From Clostridiales bacterium (lineage in GTDB: Bacteria; Bacillota; Clostridia; Christensenellales; CAG-917): a DNA stretch of 64,000 nt. The position numbers were made by a program, and so were the translations under genes. Below, in pieces: positions 11,798 through 55,751 of this stretch. Each line of letters opens with the position of its first letter. Position 1 is the first letter of the stretch. The DNA lies in the NCBI GenBank assembly GCA_022009995.1, contig CP091734.1, positions 1,089,200 through 1,153,199 of the forward strand, given 5' to 3'. The notes under the pieces are model-generated. The model saw nothing but the letters and a program-made list of their open reading frames with translations. It searched no databases and was not told the origin of the DNA.

Positions 11798-11889
11798 CTG
11801 AAAATCCGTGTACGCATTAGTACACTAGGATTTTCAGAACCCCGAAAGAAACGTCAAAAATCCATCAAATTCTCGCCGTTTTAAGAGAA
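11798..11889 (+). repeat. REP/MITE-like structured repeat, copy 1 (short form)
   Basis: Hairpin CTGAAAATCC-GTGTAC-GCATTA-GTACAC-TA-GGATTTTCAG at 11798-11837. The blocks GTACACTAGGATTTTCAGAACCC and CAAATTCTCGCCGTTTTAAGAGAA recur at 15523-15545 and 15603-15626. Confidence 0.75.
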
Positions 11890-11906
11890 GTTTTTAGATA
11901 ACAAAT

Positions 11907-15397: not shown

Positions 15398-15626
15398 CTT
15401 GAAAATTCGTTAAAGGGGACCCCGCGGGATACTGTGTACTCGCGGGGAAAAGGCGCACACAAGCAAAAGAGTGAGCGTTATCGCTTGCGATAACGTGATT
15501 TCAAAAACGAAGTGTGCGACGCGTACACTAGGATTTTCAGAACCCGCCGAGAAAACCACAATCTCATCAAAATTCTGACTTTTTAGAGAATTATTATATT
15601 TACAAATTCTCGCCGTTTTAAGAGAA
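15398..15626 (+). repeat. REP/MITE-like structured repeat, copy 2 (long form with ~115-nt structured insertion and duplicated tail)
   Basis: Left arm CTTGAAAATTCGT and right arm GTACACTAGGATTTTCAGAACCC match copy 1. Internal hairpins CCCCGCG/CGCGGGG and CGTTATCGC/GCGATAACG. The tail motif is duplicated at 15565-15590 and 15603-15626. Confidence 0.7.
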
Positions 15627-15667: not shown

Positions 15668-15728
15668 ATTTATGCGTTTTATGGCAGGTGGCATATGAAA
15701 AATGCATAATATTTTCAATTTTTTTTGC

Positions 15729-15769: not shown

Positions 15770-16015
15770 ATATAAAGGCGTTTATGAGGACGTGACAAAG
15801 TTTTGGCAGCACAGAGAGCCGTCGGTCGGTGTAAGACGGTATGCGGATTTTGTCTTATCACCTTCCAGTCGCCCGACAGAACGGAAACTATTAAGTCGGG
15901 ACGGGCGCTCCCGTTACAGAGCAACGCATTGATTGATGCGTAAGTGGCTGTTAAAGCAATTTGAGTGGTACCGCGGATTAATTCTCCGTCTCAAAACGAG
16001 ACGGGGATTTATTTT
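15770..16015 (+). promoter_or_regulatory. T-box riboswitch leader, probable Ile (AUC) specifier
   Basis: AGAGAG bulge at 15813-15818. Distal loop GGUCGGUGUAA. T-box motif AATTTGAGTGGTACCGCGG at 15958-15976. Terminator CTCCGTCTC/GAGACGGGG plus T-run at 15984-16015. Specifier loop 3' side UUAUCA puts AUC (15857-15859) before the conserved A. Confidence 0.8.
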
Positions 16016-16029
16016 ATAAGGATAAAGAT

Positions 16030-17685
16030 ATGCAACTTTACGAAAAATACGTTACCGAAACCGTTGACGAAAAAACGGGCAGACTGACAAAAATCGATTT
16101 TCATATTCCCGACGACTTCAATTTCGGGTTTGACGTGGTGGATTTCTGGGGCAAAAACACCCCCGATAAAACCGCGCTTTTGTGGGTTGGCGAACATCAC
16201 GAAGAAAAAACGTTCACTTTTTCGGATATGATGCGTCTTACAAACAAAACGGCAAATTATTTCAGGTCGCTGGGCATTAAAAAAGGCGACAGGGTAATGC
16301 TTATTCTGCGCCGTCATTATCAATTCTGGTTTTCAATCGTTGCGCTGCACAAAATCGGCGCGATCGTCATTCCCGCAACGGATCAACTTATGAAAAAGGA
16401 CCTTGTATACAGGTTCAATCTTGCGGGCGTGAGCGCGGTTGTCATCAGTTCCACAGGGAGTATCGTCGACGAGGCGGAAAAAGCCTTTGAACAATGCGAC
16501 GTCAAAACGAAAATACTTGTCGGGGCAAGCCGTGACGGCTGGCACGATTTCGACACGGAATTTCAGGCGTTTTCGGACGAGTTCAAGCGTGGCGAAGGCG
16601 TTGACGCAACTTATAAAAACGACGCCGCTCTTATGTTCTTTACGTCGGGCACGTCGGGTTATCCGAAACTTGTCATGCACGACCACGCATACGCAATCGG
16701 ACACTTTATCACTGCCAAATGGTGGCATAATATCGACGGAAACGGCGTTCACCTGACGATTGCGGACACCGGCTGGGGCAAAGCGGTCTGGGGCAAACTG
16801 TATGGACAATGGCTGATGGGCAACTGTGTTTTCGTTTACGATTTCACCCGTTTCAATGCCGACGATATGCTGTCCGTCATCGAAAAGCACAAAATCACGA
16901 CGTTTTGCGCGCCGCCCACGATTTTCAGGTTCCTTATCAAAGAAGACTTGTCAAAGTACGACATTTCCAGCATAAAATACGCGACGATCGCCGGCGAAGC
17001 GCTGAATCCCGAGGTATATAAACAATTTTTGAGCCTTACGGGCATCAAACTTATGGAAGGCTTCGGACAGACCGAAACGACGCTGACGCTTGCAAACCTT
17101 CTTCATATGAACCCGAAACCCGGCAGCATGGGCATGCCGAGCCCTCAGTATAAAATCAAACTGATTACCGCCGACGGCAGACTTGCCGCAAACGGCGAAG
17201 AAGGCGAAATCTGCGTCGATATTTCGGAAGGCGCGCCCGTCGGACTTTTCCGCGGATATTACAACAACGAAGAAGCGACAAAAGCGGTAATGCACGATGG
17301 ACTTTATCACACGGGTGACACGGCGTGGCGCGACGAAGACGGCTATTATTGGTTTGTCGGGCGCACCGACGACATCATCAAATCGTCGGGCTATCGCATC
17401 GGACCGTTTGAAATCGAAAGCGTGCTTATGGAACACCCTGCCGTTCTGGAATGCGCGATAACGGGCGCACCCGATCCCGTGCGCGGACAAGTTGTCAAGG
17501 CAACGATTGTCCTTGCGAAAGGTTATACCCCGTCGGAAGAACTGAAAAAGGACATCCAGCAATACGTGAAAAGACTTACCGCACCGTACAAATACCCGCG
17601 CATCGTGGAATTCGTGACGGAACTTCCAAAGACGATTTCCGGCAAAATCAGGCACGCCGAAATAAGGAAACAGGATAATCAATAA
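16030..17685 (+). CDS. AMP-forming acyl-CoA synthetase (medium/short-chain, ACSM/AcsA-like)
   Basis: 551 aa intact ORF. Adenylate-forming motifs FFTSGTSGYPK, YHTGD, GRTDDIIKSSGYRIG and PKTISGKIRH. Confidence 0.9.
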   Translation: MQLYEKYVTETVDEKTGRLTKIDFHIPDDFNFGFDVVDFWGKNTPDKTALLWVGEHHEEKTFTFSDMMRLTNKTANYFRSLGIKKGDRVMLILRRHYQFWFSIVALHKIGAIVIPATDQLMKKDLVYRFNLAGVSAVVISSTGSIVDEAEKAFEQCDVKTKILVGASRDGWHDFDTEFQAFSDEFKRGEGVDATYKNDAALMFFTSGTSGYPKLVMHDHAYAIGHFITAKWWHNIDGNGVHLTIADTGWGKAVWGKLYGQWLMGNCVFVYDFTRFNADDMLSVIEKHKITTFCAPPTIFRFLIKEDLSKYDISSIKYATIAGEALNPEVYKQFLSLTGIKLMEGFGQTETTLTLANLLHMNPKPGSMGMPSPQYKIKLITADGRLAANGEEGEICVDISEGAPVGLFRGYYNNEEATKAVMHDGLYHTGDTAWRDEDGYYWFVGRTDDIIKSSGYRIGPFEIESVLMEHPAVLECAITGAPDPVRGQVVKATIVLAKGYTPSEELKKDIQQYVKRLTAPYKYPRIVEFVTELPKTISGKIRHAEIRKQDNQ

Positions 17686-26254: not shown

Positions 26255-27433
26255 ATGAAAATTTACGACCTTATTATCGTTGGCGGCGGTATCGGCGGAA
26301 TGACCGCTGCCGCCCGCGTTAAAAACAAAAGCGTTCTGATCCTGGACGCAAACGACAGAATCGGCAAAAAACTGCTGTCGACGGGCGCGGGGAAGTGCAA
26401 TTTCCTGAACGAAAACTTCGACGTCGGGAAATATAACGACGGGAGTTTCGTTTCGGCAACGTTTGAAAAGTACGGTTTTTTTGAAATCAAAAAGTTTTTT
26501 GAAAGTCTGGGACTGCTTATGCGGTTTGACGAAGAAGGCAGGGGTTATCCGCTGTCGGAGTCGGCAAACACCGTGCTTGACGCATATCGCCGCGCGCTTC
26601 AAAAAAACGGGGTGGAAGTCAGAACGTCTGCACTCGTCACGAAAATATCGAAACAAAACGACTGTCAAGGTTTCTTGCGACGTTGATTATTACGGAAAGA
26701 ACGTGTTTTTCGCGACGGGCAGCAATGCGGGATTCGGATACGATTCCACGGGCGTTCTTTCGGACTTTGCAAACGTCAGAAAGTTCACGCCGTCGCTTGC
26801 GCCGCTTTCAACCGACACGACGTACATCAAAGGGCTGAACGGCGTCAGGGTAAAGGCAAAGGTCGGCTTAATAGTTAATAGCAAGGTCGTGCACGAAGAA
26901 TACGGCGAGGTGCTGTTCAAGTCGTTCGGACTGTCAGGCATTGCGACGTTCAATAATTCGGCGTACTATGCGCGTCTCGGCGCGCCGAAAAACGCATATC
27001 TTTCGTTAAACTTTCTGAATGAAAGCAAAAACGAAACTTTTTTGATACTGAAAGGCTGAAAGAATTTTCAAATGACGTCGGGGAACTGCTTTCGGGCGCG
27101 TTCCATAAGATGATCGCGCAACAGATTCTGAATATGGCGGGCATACAGGGAAGTGCGGAAGCGACCGACGAAAATCTGCAAAAACTTGCCGACGTCGTTT
27201 CCGATTTCAGAATCAAAATCACGGGCGTTTCCGATAAGTCGCTTGCACAGGTTATGAGCGGCGGTATCGACGCGTCGTGCGTAAATAAAAACACCCTTGA
27301 AATCAAGGGCGTTAATAATCTTTTTGTCGGCGGAGAGATTCTTAATATCGACGGGCTTTCGGGCGGCTACAACATAATGTGGGCGGTTGCGTCCGCAATT
27401 AAAGTTTCCGACGAAATATCAGAAAAGCCTTAA
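26255..27433 (+). CDS. HI0933/BaiN-family NAD(P)/FAD-dependent oxidoreductase; two apparent frameshifts (~26660, ~27055)
   Basis: YDLIIVGGGIGGMTAAA...GKKLLSTGAGKCN at the N-terminus and ..LAQVMSGGIDASCVN..GGEILNIDGLSGGYN at the C-terminus. Three ORF fragments join. Confidence 0.8.
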
Positions 27434-28361
27434 ATCGTTGCCGTCAATGTTGGAAATAATCGTTTTGTTCACGTTGAAAAGTCGTGAGAAAACGCGCTCG
27501 TTATAGGAGTTTTTGAGTTGTTCTTCGTTGAGGTTTGTTGTCACAAACACGGGTTTATCGGCTTTTTCGCGCTCGTCAAGTATCTTTAAGAGATATTCGT
27601 CGGTAACGTTTTTGATTTTTTGCTCGCTTCCCAAATCGTCTATGATAAGCAGATCGCAGTCGATGACGTCGGCAAGGTATACGTCGCGCTCCGACACGAA
27701 CGACGTGTGGTACGACAGCATAAGGGAATTCAGTTTGATTGCCGAAACGTACAAAACGCTGAATCCGTTTTTCATAAACTCGTTTGCGACGGCGTACATA
27801 AGATAACTTTTGCCGACGCCCGTGCCGCCCATTATGAGGGCGTTTTTATATTTCACGGAAGGATATTTGTCGCAATATTTTTTGAAAAGTTTATAGTTGG
27901 ACTCCAACTTTTTTCTTTGTTTCGCGTCCTTGATTTTTGAAAAATCGACGTCGGAAAACGTGACGTTTCGGATTTGCCCGATGCCGAGAAAATCGCATAA
28001 AGTTTCGTAATAACGCTTTTTGAAACAATCGCAGAATTTGCCCGAAAGCACGCCCGTGTCGTTGCACGTTTCGCAGTCGAATTTCGGCAAAAAGTCGCTT
28101 TCGCGCATGCCCATACGTTTAAGGGTTGCGGCGCGCTCCTTTTCAAGAAGTTTATTTTTTGAAGTTCGTCCGACGCGTCCTGTTTTCTCGCCTGTTTTAA
28201 TACGACGTCGAAGTTCAAGGAAGAAAGCTCCTTTGTTATGCGTCTGAAATCGTCGTTTCCATTGCGCGGGCAAGGTTATTGTCGGCGACTTCGACCGCGC
28301 GGTCATGTTTCAATTTGTATTCGTCCTTAACGGCAAGGACGATTTTTCCGCTTTTCATCAT
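27419..28361 (-). CDS. DnaC/DnaI-like helicase loader ATPase; two apparent frameshifts (~28157 in a T6 run, ~28255)
   Basis: Walker A IMGGTGVGKSY, Walker B DLLIIDDLG, zinc-ribbon-like CETCNDTG..CDC. ATGATGA overlap with the upstream dnaD-like gene. Confidence 0.8.
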
Positions 28362-29805
28362 ATATCGTATTCCTCGATGTCGGGAACGTTTTTGAAGATG
28401 CTGTCAAGTTGTTCCTTGGTGTATTCGCGTTCCGTGAAGTTTTTCGCCGACGACTTCGGATTTTCGACGGCGATTGCCGATTTTTTGGCTTGTTCCAGCG
28501 TGGTTATGTGCGCGTCGTGCCACTTTGCAAGTTGCTTATTGATAAATTGCAGTGGGAAGCGGCTGTTTGAGGAAAGTTCCGCGGCGTACAGAATAAGGTC
28601 GTCGGGCATGCCCCATTCGGTGCACCAGACGCGGTAATATTCGCGGTCGTTTTGCGAAACGAACCTGTTTGTCCCGGCAAGCGACAGAACTTTTTTGATG
28701 AACTCGTCGTTCTGGATTTGTCTGTCGATGTAATCGCGTATGGATTCGGACGTGATGCAGCCTTCCTTATAAAAGTGCATTACGGTCAGGTTCATACCCT
28801 GCAAGGTTTTGACGTTTGAAGTGAAGCAATATTTCGCGATGTCGAGCAGGGCGTCGTCGTCGAAGCCTTTTGAAAGCCACGGGCTGACGTATGTTTCGAT
28901 AATATAATCCAGGCTGTCGTAAAACACGCCGATCGTGCGGTTGATTTTTACGGCAAGGTCGTGGTAATGTTCGCGCTCCTTGACGTACTCGCTCATTTCG
29001 GACTCGGTAAACTTATTCAGACGGTAATATTCGTCAAGGACGGCGTCAAGTTTTTTGAAACCGCCTTTGTTTTTGCATTGTTTTGCCGCAAAAAGTATCG
29101 CGGGCATATCGAAGCCCCAGTTTTTCGTCCATTTGACAAGCATTTGTTTTTCTTCGATATCGGTTGAACCGCGGCGACCGAGAGCGCGCATAAGAGAGCG
29201 CATATCTTCGTCAAGAGAGTTGAACTCGTTGAGTTTGCCTCCACGTCCTCGACAGTCCTTACGCCTTCGCGCGCCCAGTTTCTTGCAACGGCGTTGATGT
29301 AAGGATAGCGCACGGTCGTGCCCTTATAGTTGATGCAATACTGGATAATCATAAGCATTGCGTCGGGCTGAATTTTCGTGCTGTCCATCACGTCGTAGTA
29401 CTGCAAATACTCGTTGGGCATAATCTGACGGGTGTTGAAAAGTCGTTGCGCCTCCACGTTGAAGTCGGAGAATTTCCCCGAAGCGTACTTTTTCGGGGGC
29501 TGTTTTGCGCCTTTTATCGACAAATATCTGACTTCCAGCGGGTTCACGGAAATGATTTCCAAAAGCCCCTGATTCTGCCAATACTTGAAAATTTCAAGGA
29601 TTTTATCTTCGTCCATATCAAGGACTTTCGCGAAACTTTCAACCGAGTTGTCGCGTCCCGATGGATTTGTGCAAAGATATAACCCATAAAGGTATACCTT
29701 TATGTACCCTTCTTCGGCATAGGGCAGATATTCATTCATAAAAAGATTATCGACGAGCGTGAACGACTCCATCAGATAATCGCTTGAAAACTTGCAAAAC
29801 GACAT
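28358..29805 (-). CDS. DnaD-domain replication initiation/membrane attachment protein (B. subtilis DnaB-like); frameshift ~29235
   Basis: Starts MSFCKFSSDYL (ATG 29805). DnaD-like repeats (..YINAVARNWAREGVRTVEDVEA.. and ..FINKQLAKWHDAHITTLEQAKK..). Paired with the loader gene as in dnaB-dnaI operons. Confidence 0.7.
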
Positions 29806-29974
29806 TTTTATAACCCTTTCAAAAAAAATCGACCTTGTAATTTTCGTTACAAAGGCGTATAATAAACGGTAAGTGAAAGTATAGCACGAATCGCGCGTGA
29901 ACGGTAAGCAAAAATACGCGCTTTTTGAAAATTTACAATATATTGTGATAACAAAAAAAACCGACACAAATGTG

Positions 29975-30496
29975 TCAGTTCTCTTTCGTTTCGTCGGCGG
30001 GGGTTTCGTCAAGAAAAGCCTTCCTCGTCACAAGCGACGGCACTTTCTTTTTGATAAGCAAAACAAGCGGCACGCCGATGAAGAATATCACGACTGCTTC
30101 GGACAGAGTAATCGAAATAAGATTTACCCAGTACGCCGCGTCCGTGCCCAGAAGATACCACATCAGCGGCAGCACAAGAGCATTGAGAAGTACCGGCGGC
30201 AACCCGGCAAGCCAGGCGTTTTTAATCTTTGACGTCAGTATGCCGGCAATAAGCGTCGCAAGCGAGCCGAAAATCACGTCGTACACGGGGAAGGTCGAAA
30301 ACGCGTTCGCGGCGGCGCAACCTATCGTTATCCCCAGAATGCTTTCGGGCATAATATAAGGAAGCATGACAAGCGCTTCGCTCAGCCTGAACTGAACGGG
30401 ACCGAACGATATGGGTTGCAGTAATAAGGTCAGCGCGAAATACATTGCCGCGACCACGGCGGAATAAGCGATTTTTTTAACGGGAATCCTTTTCAC
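29975..30496 (-). CDS. queT: QueT queuosine-precursor transporter (ECF S-component-like)
   Basis: GTG start at 30496. Polytopic membrane protein ..FGPVQFRLSEAL..GCAAANAF..DVIFGSLATLIAG.. preceded by a preQ1 riboswitch. Confidence 0.75.
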   Translation of the reverse strand: MKRIPVKKIAYSAVVAAMYFALTLLLQPISFGPVQFRLSEALVMLPYIMPESILGITIGCAAANAFSTFPVYDVIFGSLATLIAGILTSKIKNAWLAGLPPVLLNALVLPLMWYLLGTDAAYWVNLISITLSEAVVIFFIGVPLVLLIKKKVPSLVTRKAFLDETPADETKEN

Positions 30497-53407: not shown

Positions 53408-53721
53408 AAAAAAACGGCGACGAGCGAAAGCCCGTCGCTTTGTTTTCAAAAAACTGCGCAACCGTAACCTGACAATTTGCACCGAAGTGATACAAAAACA
53501 GGTAACTCCTTCAAGGTAACCTCGTGGCACACGCCGTTAACCGCTTAATGCTGCTGCGGTCAAGCTCTGACATGGTTCACGGGACGACATTGCACAAGAC
53601 CTTGATATCAACGTCCCTTATTTTTGCCGACCAACCATACAAAAGGCCGCATACGGCATTCAGCCCCGCATATAGAGGGTTTCGGATTACAGGGTACCCC
53701 TAGTCCCCCGCCTAGCGCAGT
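53408..53721 (-). ncRNA. ffs: Signal recognition particle RNA, large (Bacillus-type, with Alu domain), including its terminator
   Basis: On the minus strand, the Alu-domain motif CCUGUAAUCC follows the hairpin CUAG-GCGGGGGA-CUAG. Domain IV-like GUCAGAGC..CCGCAGCAGCAUUAAGCGG..GGCGUGUGCC compares with E. coli GUCAGGUCCGGAAGGAAGCAGCCAAGG..GCGUGUGCC. The 5' CUGCGC pairs with the 3' GCGCAG. Terminator GCGACG/CGTCGC plus T7. Confidence 0.72.
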
Positions 53722-53756: not shown

Positions 53757-53774
53757 GAAAAAGTTAATTGTTGT

Positions 53775-54056
53775 ATGCCAACAGATAATAATACGAACTT
53801 AGGTTTTACGCCGTGTTTTTGATTAATACTGCGTTACGCTCACGGCTTATACGGTAAAGTATTAAGCCGCTCGCGTGCCTTGTCTTATCCTAAAAACACG
53901 ACGGAAAACTTGTTCACAACCGAAAACGCCGAGATTTCAGATGATTTTTGGAAAAGGCAAACGCAGTTGTACTGTATGTACTACAAGCGCGCCTTTTTCA
54001 TAAAAGCGTTGAAATATCGGCGTTTTGGCAACGTTCGTATTATTATCTGTTGGCAT
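53775..54056. repeat. Perfect 24-bp inverted repeat pair flanking a 234-bp structured segment (candidate inverton or MITE)
   Basis: ATGCCAACAGATAATAATACGAAC at 53775-53798 is the exact reverse complement of 54033-54056. Nested imperfect inverted repeats at 53803-53820/53892-53909 and 53920-53932/54017-54028. Confidence 0.85.
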
Positions 54057-54059
54057 AGG

Positions 54060-54089
54060 TTGACTGAAAGACGAAAAATGTTGTATCAT
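54060..54089 (+). promoter_or_regulatory. Putative promoter abutting the right inverted repeat; predicted start site falls at the lipoprotein ATG
   Basis: TTGACT (54060-54065), 18 nt spacer, TATCAT (54084-54089). ATG at 54097 with no Shine-Dalgarno sequence upstream. Confidence 0.4.
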
Positions 54090-54096
54090 AAATAAT

Positions 54097-55751
54097 ATGA
54101 AAAATAAAAAGTTGATTTTAATTTTAATTGCGACGATTACGGTTATCGCGGCGGCAACCGTCCTTTCTGCGTGCGACAAAAATAAGGGCGAGTTCGTGGA
54201 CGTCGGTATCGAGTTGTATTCCGCAAAGCAATATTACGTCGAGGGCGAATCTTTCACGCCCGAAGGCGGCGTCCTTAAAGTTTACTCTTACAACGAAAAA
54301 ACGAAGGAAGAAAAATACCGCTTCGTCGATCTTACCGACAAGGACGTTACCCTTGAAAACACGACGGGAGCGCGCGTCGATACGTACACCGTTACCGCAA
54401 GATACAAAGGGCTTTCGACGCGATTCAAGTATATCGTGCAAAAAGAAGAAAACGCCGTTGCGAGTGTTGATTTTGTGCTGTCGGAAGACCACGGCGCGCC
54501 TGTGTATTCGGTGTCGGATATTCGCAGTGAAATCGATTTCGGACTTTATCGGTATGAAATTTGTGATAAAGTACCGTAATACGGAAAAACAAGACGAAGA
54601 AGTTCCGCTTTGGGACGAGAACAGTTATAGATTTTACGACCTTTCTTACAGCGGTTTCGACGTCAAAACGGCAGGGGAAAAAAACATTACTTTCACCTGC
54701 ATCGCGACCGACGTCGTGCTGCCGTATAAGGTGACCGAAGACGACTTCGTTTACGACTTCGAATTCGTGAAATACGATAAAGAAAAAAAGGAATACGTTT
54801 CCGTCAAAAAAGAAGACAGCGTGAGAAGAAATTACCTTGTCGGCGAAAAGTTTGACGCGCAGAATACGAAAATCAGATATATTTACAAATCGCTGAAAAA
54901 AGCGGAGCCCGTCGATATTTCCGAAAGTCAAATTTCAGGTTTTGATACGACGACGGCTTCCGACAAAAAAATGTTTATTCTTTCGTTGCTCACGGGGGTT
55001 GAAACGTTTAATTATTCGGTATTCGAAGAAACCGCCGTCAAAGGCGTTACGCTGAACAACAAAGATTTCGCAGCCCACGCCCGGATTCAACGACGTATGG
55101 ACGGAAAAAACGAAAGGCGAATGGAAGTCGTACGAAGAGTATATCGCCGCCATAAAACTGTGCCTCGTTCTGGACGAAGACAGCAAGCAATACGTACCCG
55201 TGACGGGCGCGGACGAAGATATTATTTTGTATTACGTCACCCCCGACGAACAAGACCTGAGCCTCAAAAAGGAATTCACGAAAGAAGTTTTTGACAAACT
55301 CAAAAAGACGGAGTGCGAATACGAAATAATTGCGGTTTATCGGAAAAATCCCGAAGTGTACGCAAGGAGAATCTTCTTTACCGTGAAAAACTTTATCACG
55401 GGCATAGATTTTGTAAATCTGAACGTTGAAAATCTCACGTTCACGGAAGGCGACGCGTTCAGCTTCGGCGAAGCAACCGCAACAGTGCATTACGCCGACG
55501 GAAAGACCAAAACCGTAAGGTTGCAGGACGAATACGAAAAATCCGACGAAAACGAAAGGCTGATACGAATGAAAAACCTGAAAGCGGTCGAGGCGAAAAC
55601 GTTCGATATGAGCGCAGGCGAGCATAAAAACCAATATTATATCACTGCAAATATCGACGTTTCAGATTACGACGTTACCGTGAACGGCGAAAAATTTGTC
55701 GAAGACAACGGATTCAGGATTTATATAAGTTACGTCGTGCAAAAAGCGTAA
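54097..55751 (+). CDS. Surface lipoprotein (~551 aa) with bacterial Ig-like repeat character; two apparent frameshifts (~54543, ~55075)
   Basis: Signal MKNKKLILILIATITVIAAATVLSAC. Repeated ..Y(Y/L)VGE(S/K)F(T/D)..G..(L/I)(K/R)V.Y.. modules. Three ORF fragments (54097, 54128-frame, 55200) join continuously. Confidence 0.6.

Follow-up and report, generated by a model that had tools for sequence, protein, structure and literature searches.

A dispersed palindromic repeat, very probably a non-autonomous mobile element, between the SRP RNA and lipoprotein promoters of a human-gut Clostridiales bacterium

The window, i.e. the whole stretch of 64,000 nucleotides that was analysed, contains a pair of divergent transcription units separated by a conspicuous palindromic segment. 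On the minus strand, positions 53454-53720 match the large SRP RNA (RF01854, 151 bits). On the plus strand lies a gene whose product has a lipoprotein-type signal peptide with an LSAC lipobox, and its intact orthologue matches Big_3. The initial annotation had placed the segment between the SRP RNA promoter and a surface-lipoprotein promoter (TTGACT-18-TATCAT, 3 nt beyond the right repeat), and the RF01854 match, the promoter-like sites and the lipobox all agree with that description. No Shine-Dalgarno sequence precedes the lipoprotein gene (window 54084-54099), and its ATG lies 7 nt downstream of the TATCAT hexamer. Both features are shared by all orthologues; this suggests that the lipoprotein mRNA may be leaderless. 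The features of the locus, together with one further site in the window that is discussed below, are as follows.

53756 to 53728, minus strand: promoter-like site of the SRP RNA, TTGACT-17-TACAAT with TG ahead of the second hexamer; intact, 17 nt off the element's left end
53774 to 54057, no strand: whole element, 284 bp including the flanking T and A, 282 bp as ATGCC...GGCAT; subfamily A
53774 to 53798, plus strand: left terminal inverted repeat, TATGCCAACAGATAATAATACGAAC
53802 to 53910, no strand: internal hairpin 1 (helices 2-4), one arm of the Y; basal stem GTTTTACGCCGTGTTTTT / AAAAACACGACGGAAAAC with two more helices above, compensatory changes in helices 2 and 3
53920 to 54028, no strand: internal hairpin 2 (helices 5-7), the other arm of the Y; carries the family's most conserved core, GATGATTTTTGGNAAANNNGAACGCNGNNGTACT
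54033 to 54057, minus strand: right terminal inverted repeat, exact reverse complement of the left repeat
54060 to 54089, plus strand: promoter-like site of the Big_3 lipoprotein gene, TTGACT-18-TATCAT; intact, 3 nt past the element's right end, ATG at 54097
15685 to 15698, no strand: unoccupied site, ...GCAGGTGG / CATATG..., filled in L028 between 15691 and 15692

The segment is bounded by terminal repeats that had been described as a perfect 24-mer pair. Indeed, ATGCCAACAGATAATAATACGAAC (53775-53798) is the exact reverse complement of 54033-54056, its only 2 matches in the 64-kb window are the two repeat arms, and no match was found in any of 100 dinucleotide shuffles; the true length of the perfect inverted repeat is, however, 25 bp (53774-53798 and 54033-54057), with an imperfect extension to 40 bp. 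Two inner inverted repeats (53803-53820 / 53892-53909 and 53923-53958 / 53991-54026) turn the segment into a nested palindrome. As RNA, it is predicted to fold into a three-way junction on either strand, at -121.9 kcal/mol (z = -11.1) on the plus and -123.9 kcal/mol (z = -12.1) on the minus strand, and the fold predicted for the segment as DNA reaches -76.1 kcal/mol (z = -10.6). Both the inner repeat pairs and the junction-like fold reported initially could thus be located. We found no promoter-like (sigma-70-like) or terminator-like site wholly inside the segment. The right terminal repeat holds TTGGCA (54050-54055), an outward-facing -35-like hexamer, and the sole weak promoter-like match, at 54050-54079, starts in this repeat and reads outward, so that the earlier statement that the segment has no strong internal promoter stands.

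The same unit recurs at many other places. BLASTN against GenBank phage records returned it at 76-96% identity in 8 human-faecal contigs, with the similarity confined between the terminal repeats and the flanks unrelated. The alignment of these copies revealed an invariant core in the right half, and a 27-base core pattern derived from it, when scanned over human-gut metagenome contigs, gave at least 120 matching stretches. Several matches may lie on one contig: there are 3 on OCHN01000002.1, 3 in 157 kb of OPBD01000010.1 and 4 on two ERZ857840 contigs. Altogether 72 full-length copies of 279-284 bp were extracted, with 39 distinct flank pairs. Subfamily A, which is about 95% identical to the window copy, measures 282-284 bp, and the other main subfamily, B, about 78% identical, measures 279-281 bp; rarer types occur too. 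In L077 and L119 copies of A and B lie 2 kb apart, i.e. both subfamilies reside in one genome. The ends of the family are sharp, reading ATGCC...GGCAT mostly with a flanking T and A, and those of the window copy were set both by the points at which homology to copies elsewhere starts and stops and by orthologous loci without the element. Within the terminal repeats, ATGCCA on the outside and ACGAAC on the inside do not vary between subfamilies; the stretch between these blocks does, with both arms co-varying.

Most copies are intergenic (34 of the 39 sites), where they are found among all arrangements of neighbour genes and in either orientation with respect to them. Decay products often accompany the full-length copies. 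L009 has been reduced to 51 nt by an internal deletion, L087 is a short form of 163 nt, and there are also right halves and terminal repeats standing alone. Only one ATG-led frame, of about 20 codons, is conserved, and in the alignment, which was read by eye, the differences between subfamilies track hairpin complementarity and not codon structure; we see no plausible conserved coding capacity in the family.

Judging by the names borne by cluster members of the flanking proteins, the hosts of the family are uncultured human-gut Christensenellales/Clostridiales bacteria. A 20-mer from the terminal repeat gave a single chance match among GTDB species genomes (a Ferruginibacter MAG), the conserved core had no matches in IMG/VR, and neither the whole element nor its left 50 nt matched PLSDB plasmids significantly. 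The GenBank records L002-L009 (MT835484, MT835490, MT835522, MT835528, MT835718, MT835788, MT836361 and MT839150) were deposited as 'UNVERIFIED: Bacteriophage sp.' from Mexican fecal samples. At least MT835490 is collinear with a 644-kb bacterial contig, and the L009 locus is found on a 644-kb bacterial contig. As the latter locus is on bacterial DNA and the core is absent from IMG/VR, these records are probably bacterial DNA from virus-like-particle preparations. In three short contigs (L017, L073 and L109), the left flank of one locus is joined to the right flank of another, which reflects either recombination or chimeric assembly across the repeat. Copy borders seem to be hot spots for small rearrangements.

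The state of the window locus in other strains was assessed in 20 orthologous SRP-RNA/lipoprotein loci, gathered from public assemblies via two flanking window proteins. Seventeen of them lack the element, and the closest sequence reads ...GTTAATTGTT-ATTGTTCGGTACG-GGTTGACT..., as compared to ...GTTAATTGTT-G[TATGCC...GGCATA]-GGTTGACT... in the window. Three others (L144, which is GCA_021635675.1, L145 and L148) keep a 79-nt right-end remnant, both junctions of which are identical to those of the window. Since independent assemblies carry this remnant with the same junctions, the insertion is confirmed as real. It is strain-specific and represents the derived state, which is eroding by deletion.

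These remnants also bear on the idea that the segment is an assembly artefact, i.e. a spurious palindrome or a chimeric insertion from error-prone long reads. It is true that the window has homopolymer deletions typical of uncorrected long reads: each of its indels relative to the orthologous short-read contig L130 removes one or two bases from a run of A or T (53278, 54539, 55065, 55753, 56107 and 56606; also 50682). Three genes are broken into several ORFs in this way, namely ileS, which encodes isoleucyl-tRNA synthetase, and those of the esterase and of the Big_3 lipoprotein (orthologues have 551-554 aa). Because all of these indels fall in such homopolymer runs, the apparent frameshifts in the three genes are most likely long-read errors rather than marks of pseudogenes. 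However, L144, L145 and L148 carry their remnant independently, and more than 100 copies of the unit are present in other assemblies, which leaves the artefact with practically no probability.

The window copy sits in the 33-bp spacer between the divergent -35 boxes, where about 13 bp have been replaced. It moved the two promoters about 270 bp apart and destroyed neither of them. Its effect at this locus is most likely neutral, or that of a mild modifier of both promoters, and not that of a regulator. Among strains, this short spacer is unusually variable; in L132, L135, L136 and L138 (orthologues of window positions ~53760-54075) a 37-bp tandem duplication of the inter-promoter spacer has doubled the TTGACT -35 box.

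Two further pairs of filled and empty alleles were found. The site at 15691/15692 holds a full copy in L028, a 97.5%-identical strain, and is empty in the window and in L060; another site is filled in L047 and empty in L095. In each of the three pairs the filled allele lacks some bases of the empty one, 4, 8 or 13 in number, the window site being the one with 13. It is from this presence/absence polymorphism between strains that we infer the mobility of the family.

Other features near 15691/15692 may be mentioned here. A second, unrelated dispersed intergenic repeat (GGGGACCCCGCGGGATACTGTGTACTCGCGGGG...GAGCGTTATCGCTTGCGATAACG...) occupies 15415-15522; a second part follows at 15523-15600, and 11820-11906 holds a partial copy that is weaker. 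The main unit measures about 110 nt, and this repeat is present in at least 23 fetched loci, often in tandem or inverted and sometimes near the palindromic element (L094). At 15772-15996 there is a T-box leader (RF00230, 99 bits), and the gene directly downstream of it is an AMP-binding gene of the acyl/aryl-CoA-ligase type (16030-17685), which is neither an aminoacyl-tRNA synthetase nor an amino-acid biosynthesis gene.

Of the three readings put forward initially, the favoured one was an inverton, i.e. a promoter or terminator switch in which a recombinase encoded elsewhere would flip the 234-bp interior between the 25-bp repeats and thus phase-vary the lipoprotein gene. On one hand, perfect 25-bp inverted repeats do adjoin a surface-lipoprotein promoter, and the known invertons (the polysaccharide promoters of Bacteroides fragilis; cwpV and flgB of C. 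difficile) likewise have 10-30 bp inverted repeats around some 200 bp upstream of a surface-protein gene. Occasional inversion has also been reported for Correia elements (PMC10969869), and at one other locus of the present family the interior lies in opposite orientations in different samples (L033 vs L115). On the other hand, unlike invertons, the segment has no promoter-like site wholly within it, and orientation relative to the flanks was constant at 13 loci, each represented by 2-12 independent assemblies (47 in total). The unit is dispersed over at least 39 distinct flanks and all gene contexts, it is absent from 17 of the 20 orthologous loci, the lipoprotein promoter being intact either way, and no recombinase gene was found in the window or beside copies. 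As to the exceptional locus, the L033 and L115 forms are cut at different ends, and simple inversion cannot interconvert them. We therefore rejected L033/L068/L071-type and L115/L117 as inversion alleles: each lacks a different end, the L033 form keeps scraps of a second, inverted copy, and the left junction also varies by a 10-nt deletion. A second insertion beside a resident copy, followed by deletion, is a better explanation. The inverton proposal thus did not hold up, and we consider it extremely unlikely.

How the element is inserted was assessed from its junctions. The lack of a flanking target-site duplication, reported before for the window copy, extends to all 39 sites, at which direct repeats at the borders are no commoner than in shuffled pairings. 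Of 85 distinct ends, 71% have a T immediately before ATGCC; T...A flanks 20 of the 39 sites, and at the other 19 one side deviates, never both. The repeat bases adjoining this T and A are about 99% conserved, the AT being invariant at both ends and the next base outward variable. With its immediate neighbours so well conserved, T...A is too variable for a strict TA duplication to be likely. A strict TA target duplicated on insertion, as in IS630/Tc1-mariner or Correia-like elements, was accordingly rejected, given the 19 imperfect sites and the filled/empty pairs, which do not reduce to a single TA. More generally, four junction models were considered, namely TA duplication, a conservative crossover at the shared AT, blunt insertion between T and A, and insertion of a unit of 280 nt at GTTGG^CATA; each of them needs additional changes to account for all three filled/empty pairs.

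Some insertions are found at the ends of other copies. Abutted or nested element ends are present in L005 (GTTGGCATGCCAAC), L072/L082 (GGCATACCAAC), L114 (GTTGGTATGCC) and L110 (GGCAT-ACC-ATGCC), and 10 of the last 11 bases of the element are matched by the target in L028, CAGTTGGCATA. For the two remaining empty sites the likeness of the target to element ends is not significant (p = 0.56 and 0.98). Mimicry of element ends by the target is thus convincing only in L028 and where the insertion has hit a resident copy.

Such junctions might be produced by site-specific recombination of the serine, tyrosine or DEDD type instead of a DDE transposase. An abutted-end circular or tandem intermediate would then be formed, in which the palindrome made by GTTGGCAT and ATGCCAAC would be the recombination site. 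Recombination of abutted ends would account for both the missing duplication and the preference for targets resembling element ends, and it is in line with the invariant AT followed outward by a variable base, with the abutted-end junctions listed above and with the L028 target. However, a conservative AT crossover should leave GTTGG-C-AT-GCC as the left junction in L028 and L114, and both show T instead. Moreover, a conservative recombinase does not lose target bases, of which 13 are gone from the window site; end likeness was insignificant at two of the three empty sites, and no such enzyme was found. We consider this route possible, yet doubtful on balance.

Elements known to move in this manner offer a comparison. 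IS607-type serine transposases, IS110/IS1111 DEDD elements and Tn4451-type elements make no target duplication, have a short invariant junction sequence and abutted ends and, in some cases, use end-like targets. They generally lack long perfect terminal inverted repeats, and they encode their own recombinase. The present family resembles them in the absence of a duplication, in its invariant junction bases, in its abutted ends and in some end-like targets, but differs in having long perfect terminal repeats, no linked recombinase gene and junctions that do not suit a simple conservative crossover.

A mobilising enzyme was searched for at several levels. A Pfam scan of the 56 window ORFs found no recombinase, as had been stated in the initial annotation, and no transposase. 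The sole match to a Pfam family with a transposon-related name, IstB_IS21 (2e-13), falls in the region 27419-30012 on the minus strand, but the gene is not part of an IS21 element: it also matches the DnaA ATPase domain and adjoins two DnaB_2 genes, and its product is a helicase loader of the DnaC/DnaI type. Within 8 kb upstream of any right end, we found no matching left repeat at an IS-like distance, and lone terminal repeats, considered as possible ends of an autonomous partner, proved to be remnants. The ORFs that recur beside copies in different contexts encode acyltransferases and Flg_new repeat proteins, with no transposase or recombinase among them. About 1.1 Mb of sequence flanking the copies, the window and the PLSDB plasmids all failed to yield a transposase-bearing relative with the same terminal repeats, and the mobilising enzyme is therefore purely inferential.

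The Y-shaped fold itself is a conserved property of the family. Of the alignment cells, 98.6% are paired; at 21 pairs both partners have changed in a compensatory way, and all three stems are maintained. The covariation score is 0.185, as compared to at most 0.038 in slid controls, and none of 500 shuffles reaches this value. The number of independent covariation events is small, though, because most of the compensatory changes go back to one and the same divergence, that of subfamily A from subfamily B. Conservation is higher in the interior than midway along the terminal repeats, and this, together with the compensatory changes, might reflect a function apart from mobility. The two strands do not differ in G-U pairs, which occur on both, or in folding energy, their mean MFE being -114.8 vs -116.7 kcal/mol. 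That both strands are predicted to fold equally well argues for a constraint acting at the DNA level, or at least in a strand-neutral manner, rather than on a specific RNA.

It might still be supposed, in line with the long-stem RNA proposed initially as a further alternative, that the element is a structured-RNA gene or cis-element with a long-stem, Y-shaped transcript, its multiplication in genomes being secondary. The very stable predicted fold (z about -11), the stems kept by compensatory change and the well-conserved interior would all suit such an RNA. The equivalence of the two strands does not, and there is no conserved internal promoter or terminator; the window copy lies between promoters that fire away from it, and copies occur in both orientations relative to their neighbours. 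Besides, Rfam 15 covariance models gave no match to 53774-54057 at the gathering threshold, and nothing above chance level at E <= 10. We thus consider an RNA of this kind very unlikely.

Among the systems described so far, the Correia repeat-enclosed elements of Neisseria (CREE / NEMIS) come to mind first. These are gene-less units of 100-200 bp with terminal inverted repeats of about 26 bp and ends reading TA, present in tens to hundreds of copies, mainly intergenic and often by promoters; they form long hairpins, are polymorphic in insertion between strains and duplicate a TA target. We know of no transposase for them. The two families share their small size, the absence of genes, the terminal repeats, multiple copies, a mostly intergenic location, folding into hairpins and polymorphism among strains. 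On the other hand, they have no sequence similarity, the host of the present family is a Firmicute, and its copies are longer and have two conserved inner hairpins forming a Y, in contrast to the one stem of Correia elements. Moreover, Correia elements duplicate TA, whereas the family described here has T...A at 20 of 39 sites and no duplication in the filled/empty pairs. Even so, in anatomy and lifestyle the Correia element is the closest described analogue (PMC10969869).

Prokaryotic MITEs in general are shorter than 500 bp, have terminal inverted repeats of 4-30 bp, no coding capacity, a stable fold, an intergenic location, high copy number and subfamilies (PMC10969869). With the IS-derived ones (e.g. 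the IS630-type Nezha and MITEAba12), the window family has size, terminal repeats, non-coding nature, fold, intergenic bias, copy number and subfamilies in common. Unlike them, it has no direct repeats at its borders, not even where copies are young (94-98% identical); the sequence searched yielded no parent IS sharing its ends, and conservation in its interior exceeds that in the middle of its terminal repeats. The MITE reading, offered initially as an alternative to the inverton, is therefore upheld in part: the family is present in many copies (at least 120 metagenome matches and at least 39 sites), as a MITE would show, has terminal inverted repeats and no plausible coding capacity, is mostly intergenic and is polymorphic among strains, but the target-site duplications expected of a MITE, in the initial annotation too, are absent from the 39 sites.

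Taken together, the segment is very probably one copy of a non-coding, non-autonomous mobile repeat of about 280 bp, which landed between two back-to-back promoters. Such a MITE-like element would be moved in trans by an enzyme encoded elsewhere. This enzyme would recognise two blocks of the terminal repeats, ATGCCA on the outside and ACGAAC on the inside, and it might also read the ACGCCG/CGGCGT-type motifs at the base of the two inner hairpins, of which there are four, one being degenerate (CGACGG). The folding of the nested palindrome may be required either for the transposition reaction or for the persistence of the element as DNA. Insertion would occur without target duplication and would tend towards sequences at, or similar to, the element's own ends. 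Since there is no target duplication and the insertions show a bias to end-like sequences, a recombinase-type or otherwise atypical mechanism would be a better fit than a classical DDE transposase making staggered cuts.

This reading can be narrowed further, at the cost of becoming rather improbable. In the narrower version, the conserved Y fold of the non-autonomous element, and not the terminal repeats alone, would be a substrate or cofactor of mobility, acting as a cruciform or hairpin DNA intermediate or as a guide-like RNA from abutted ends, and the element would home to terminus-like sequences via a non-DDE enzyme. If this were true, it would be a new kind of non-autonomous element without target duplication.

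Returning to the MITE-like repeat as such, its description provides a name and an annotation model for a sequence found again and again in the small (~1.5 Mb) genomes of an uncultured but common human-gut lineage, in which it breaks assemblies and generates structural variation between strains, visible as chimeric flanks, nested copies and small border deletions. In this strain, the intergenic region between the SRP RNA and the lipoprotein gene should not be taken for a phase-variation switch. And if insertion without duplication, directed by the ends, holds, the family would offer a tractable MITE-like element with a non-classical mode of mobilisation.
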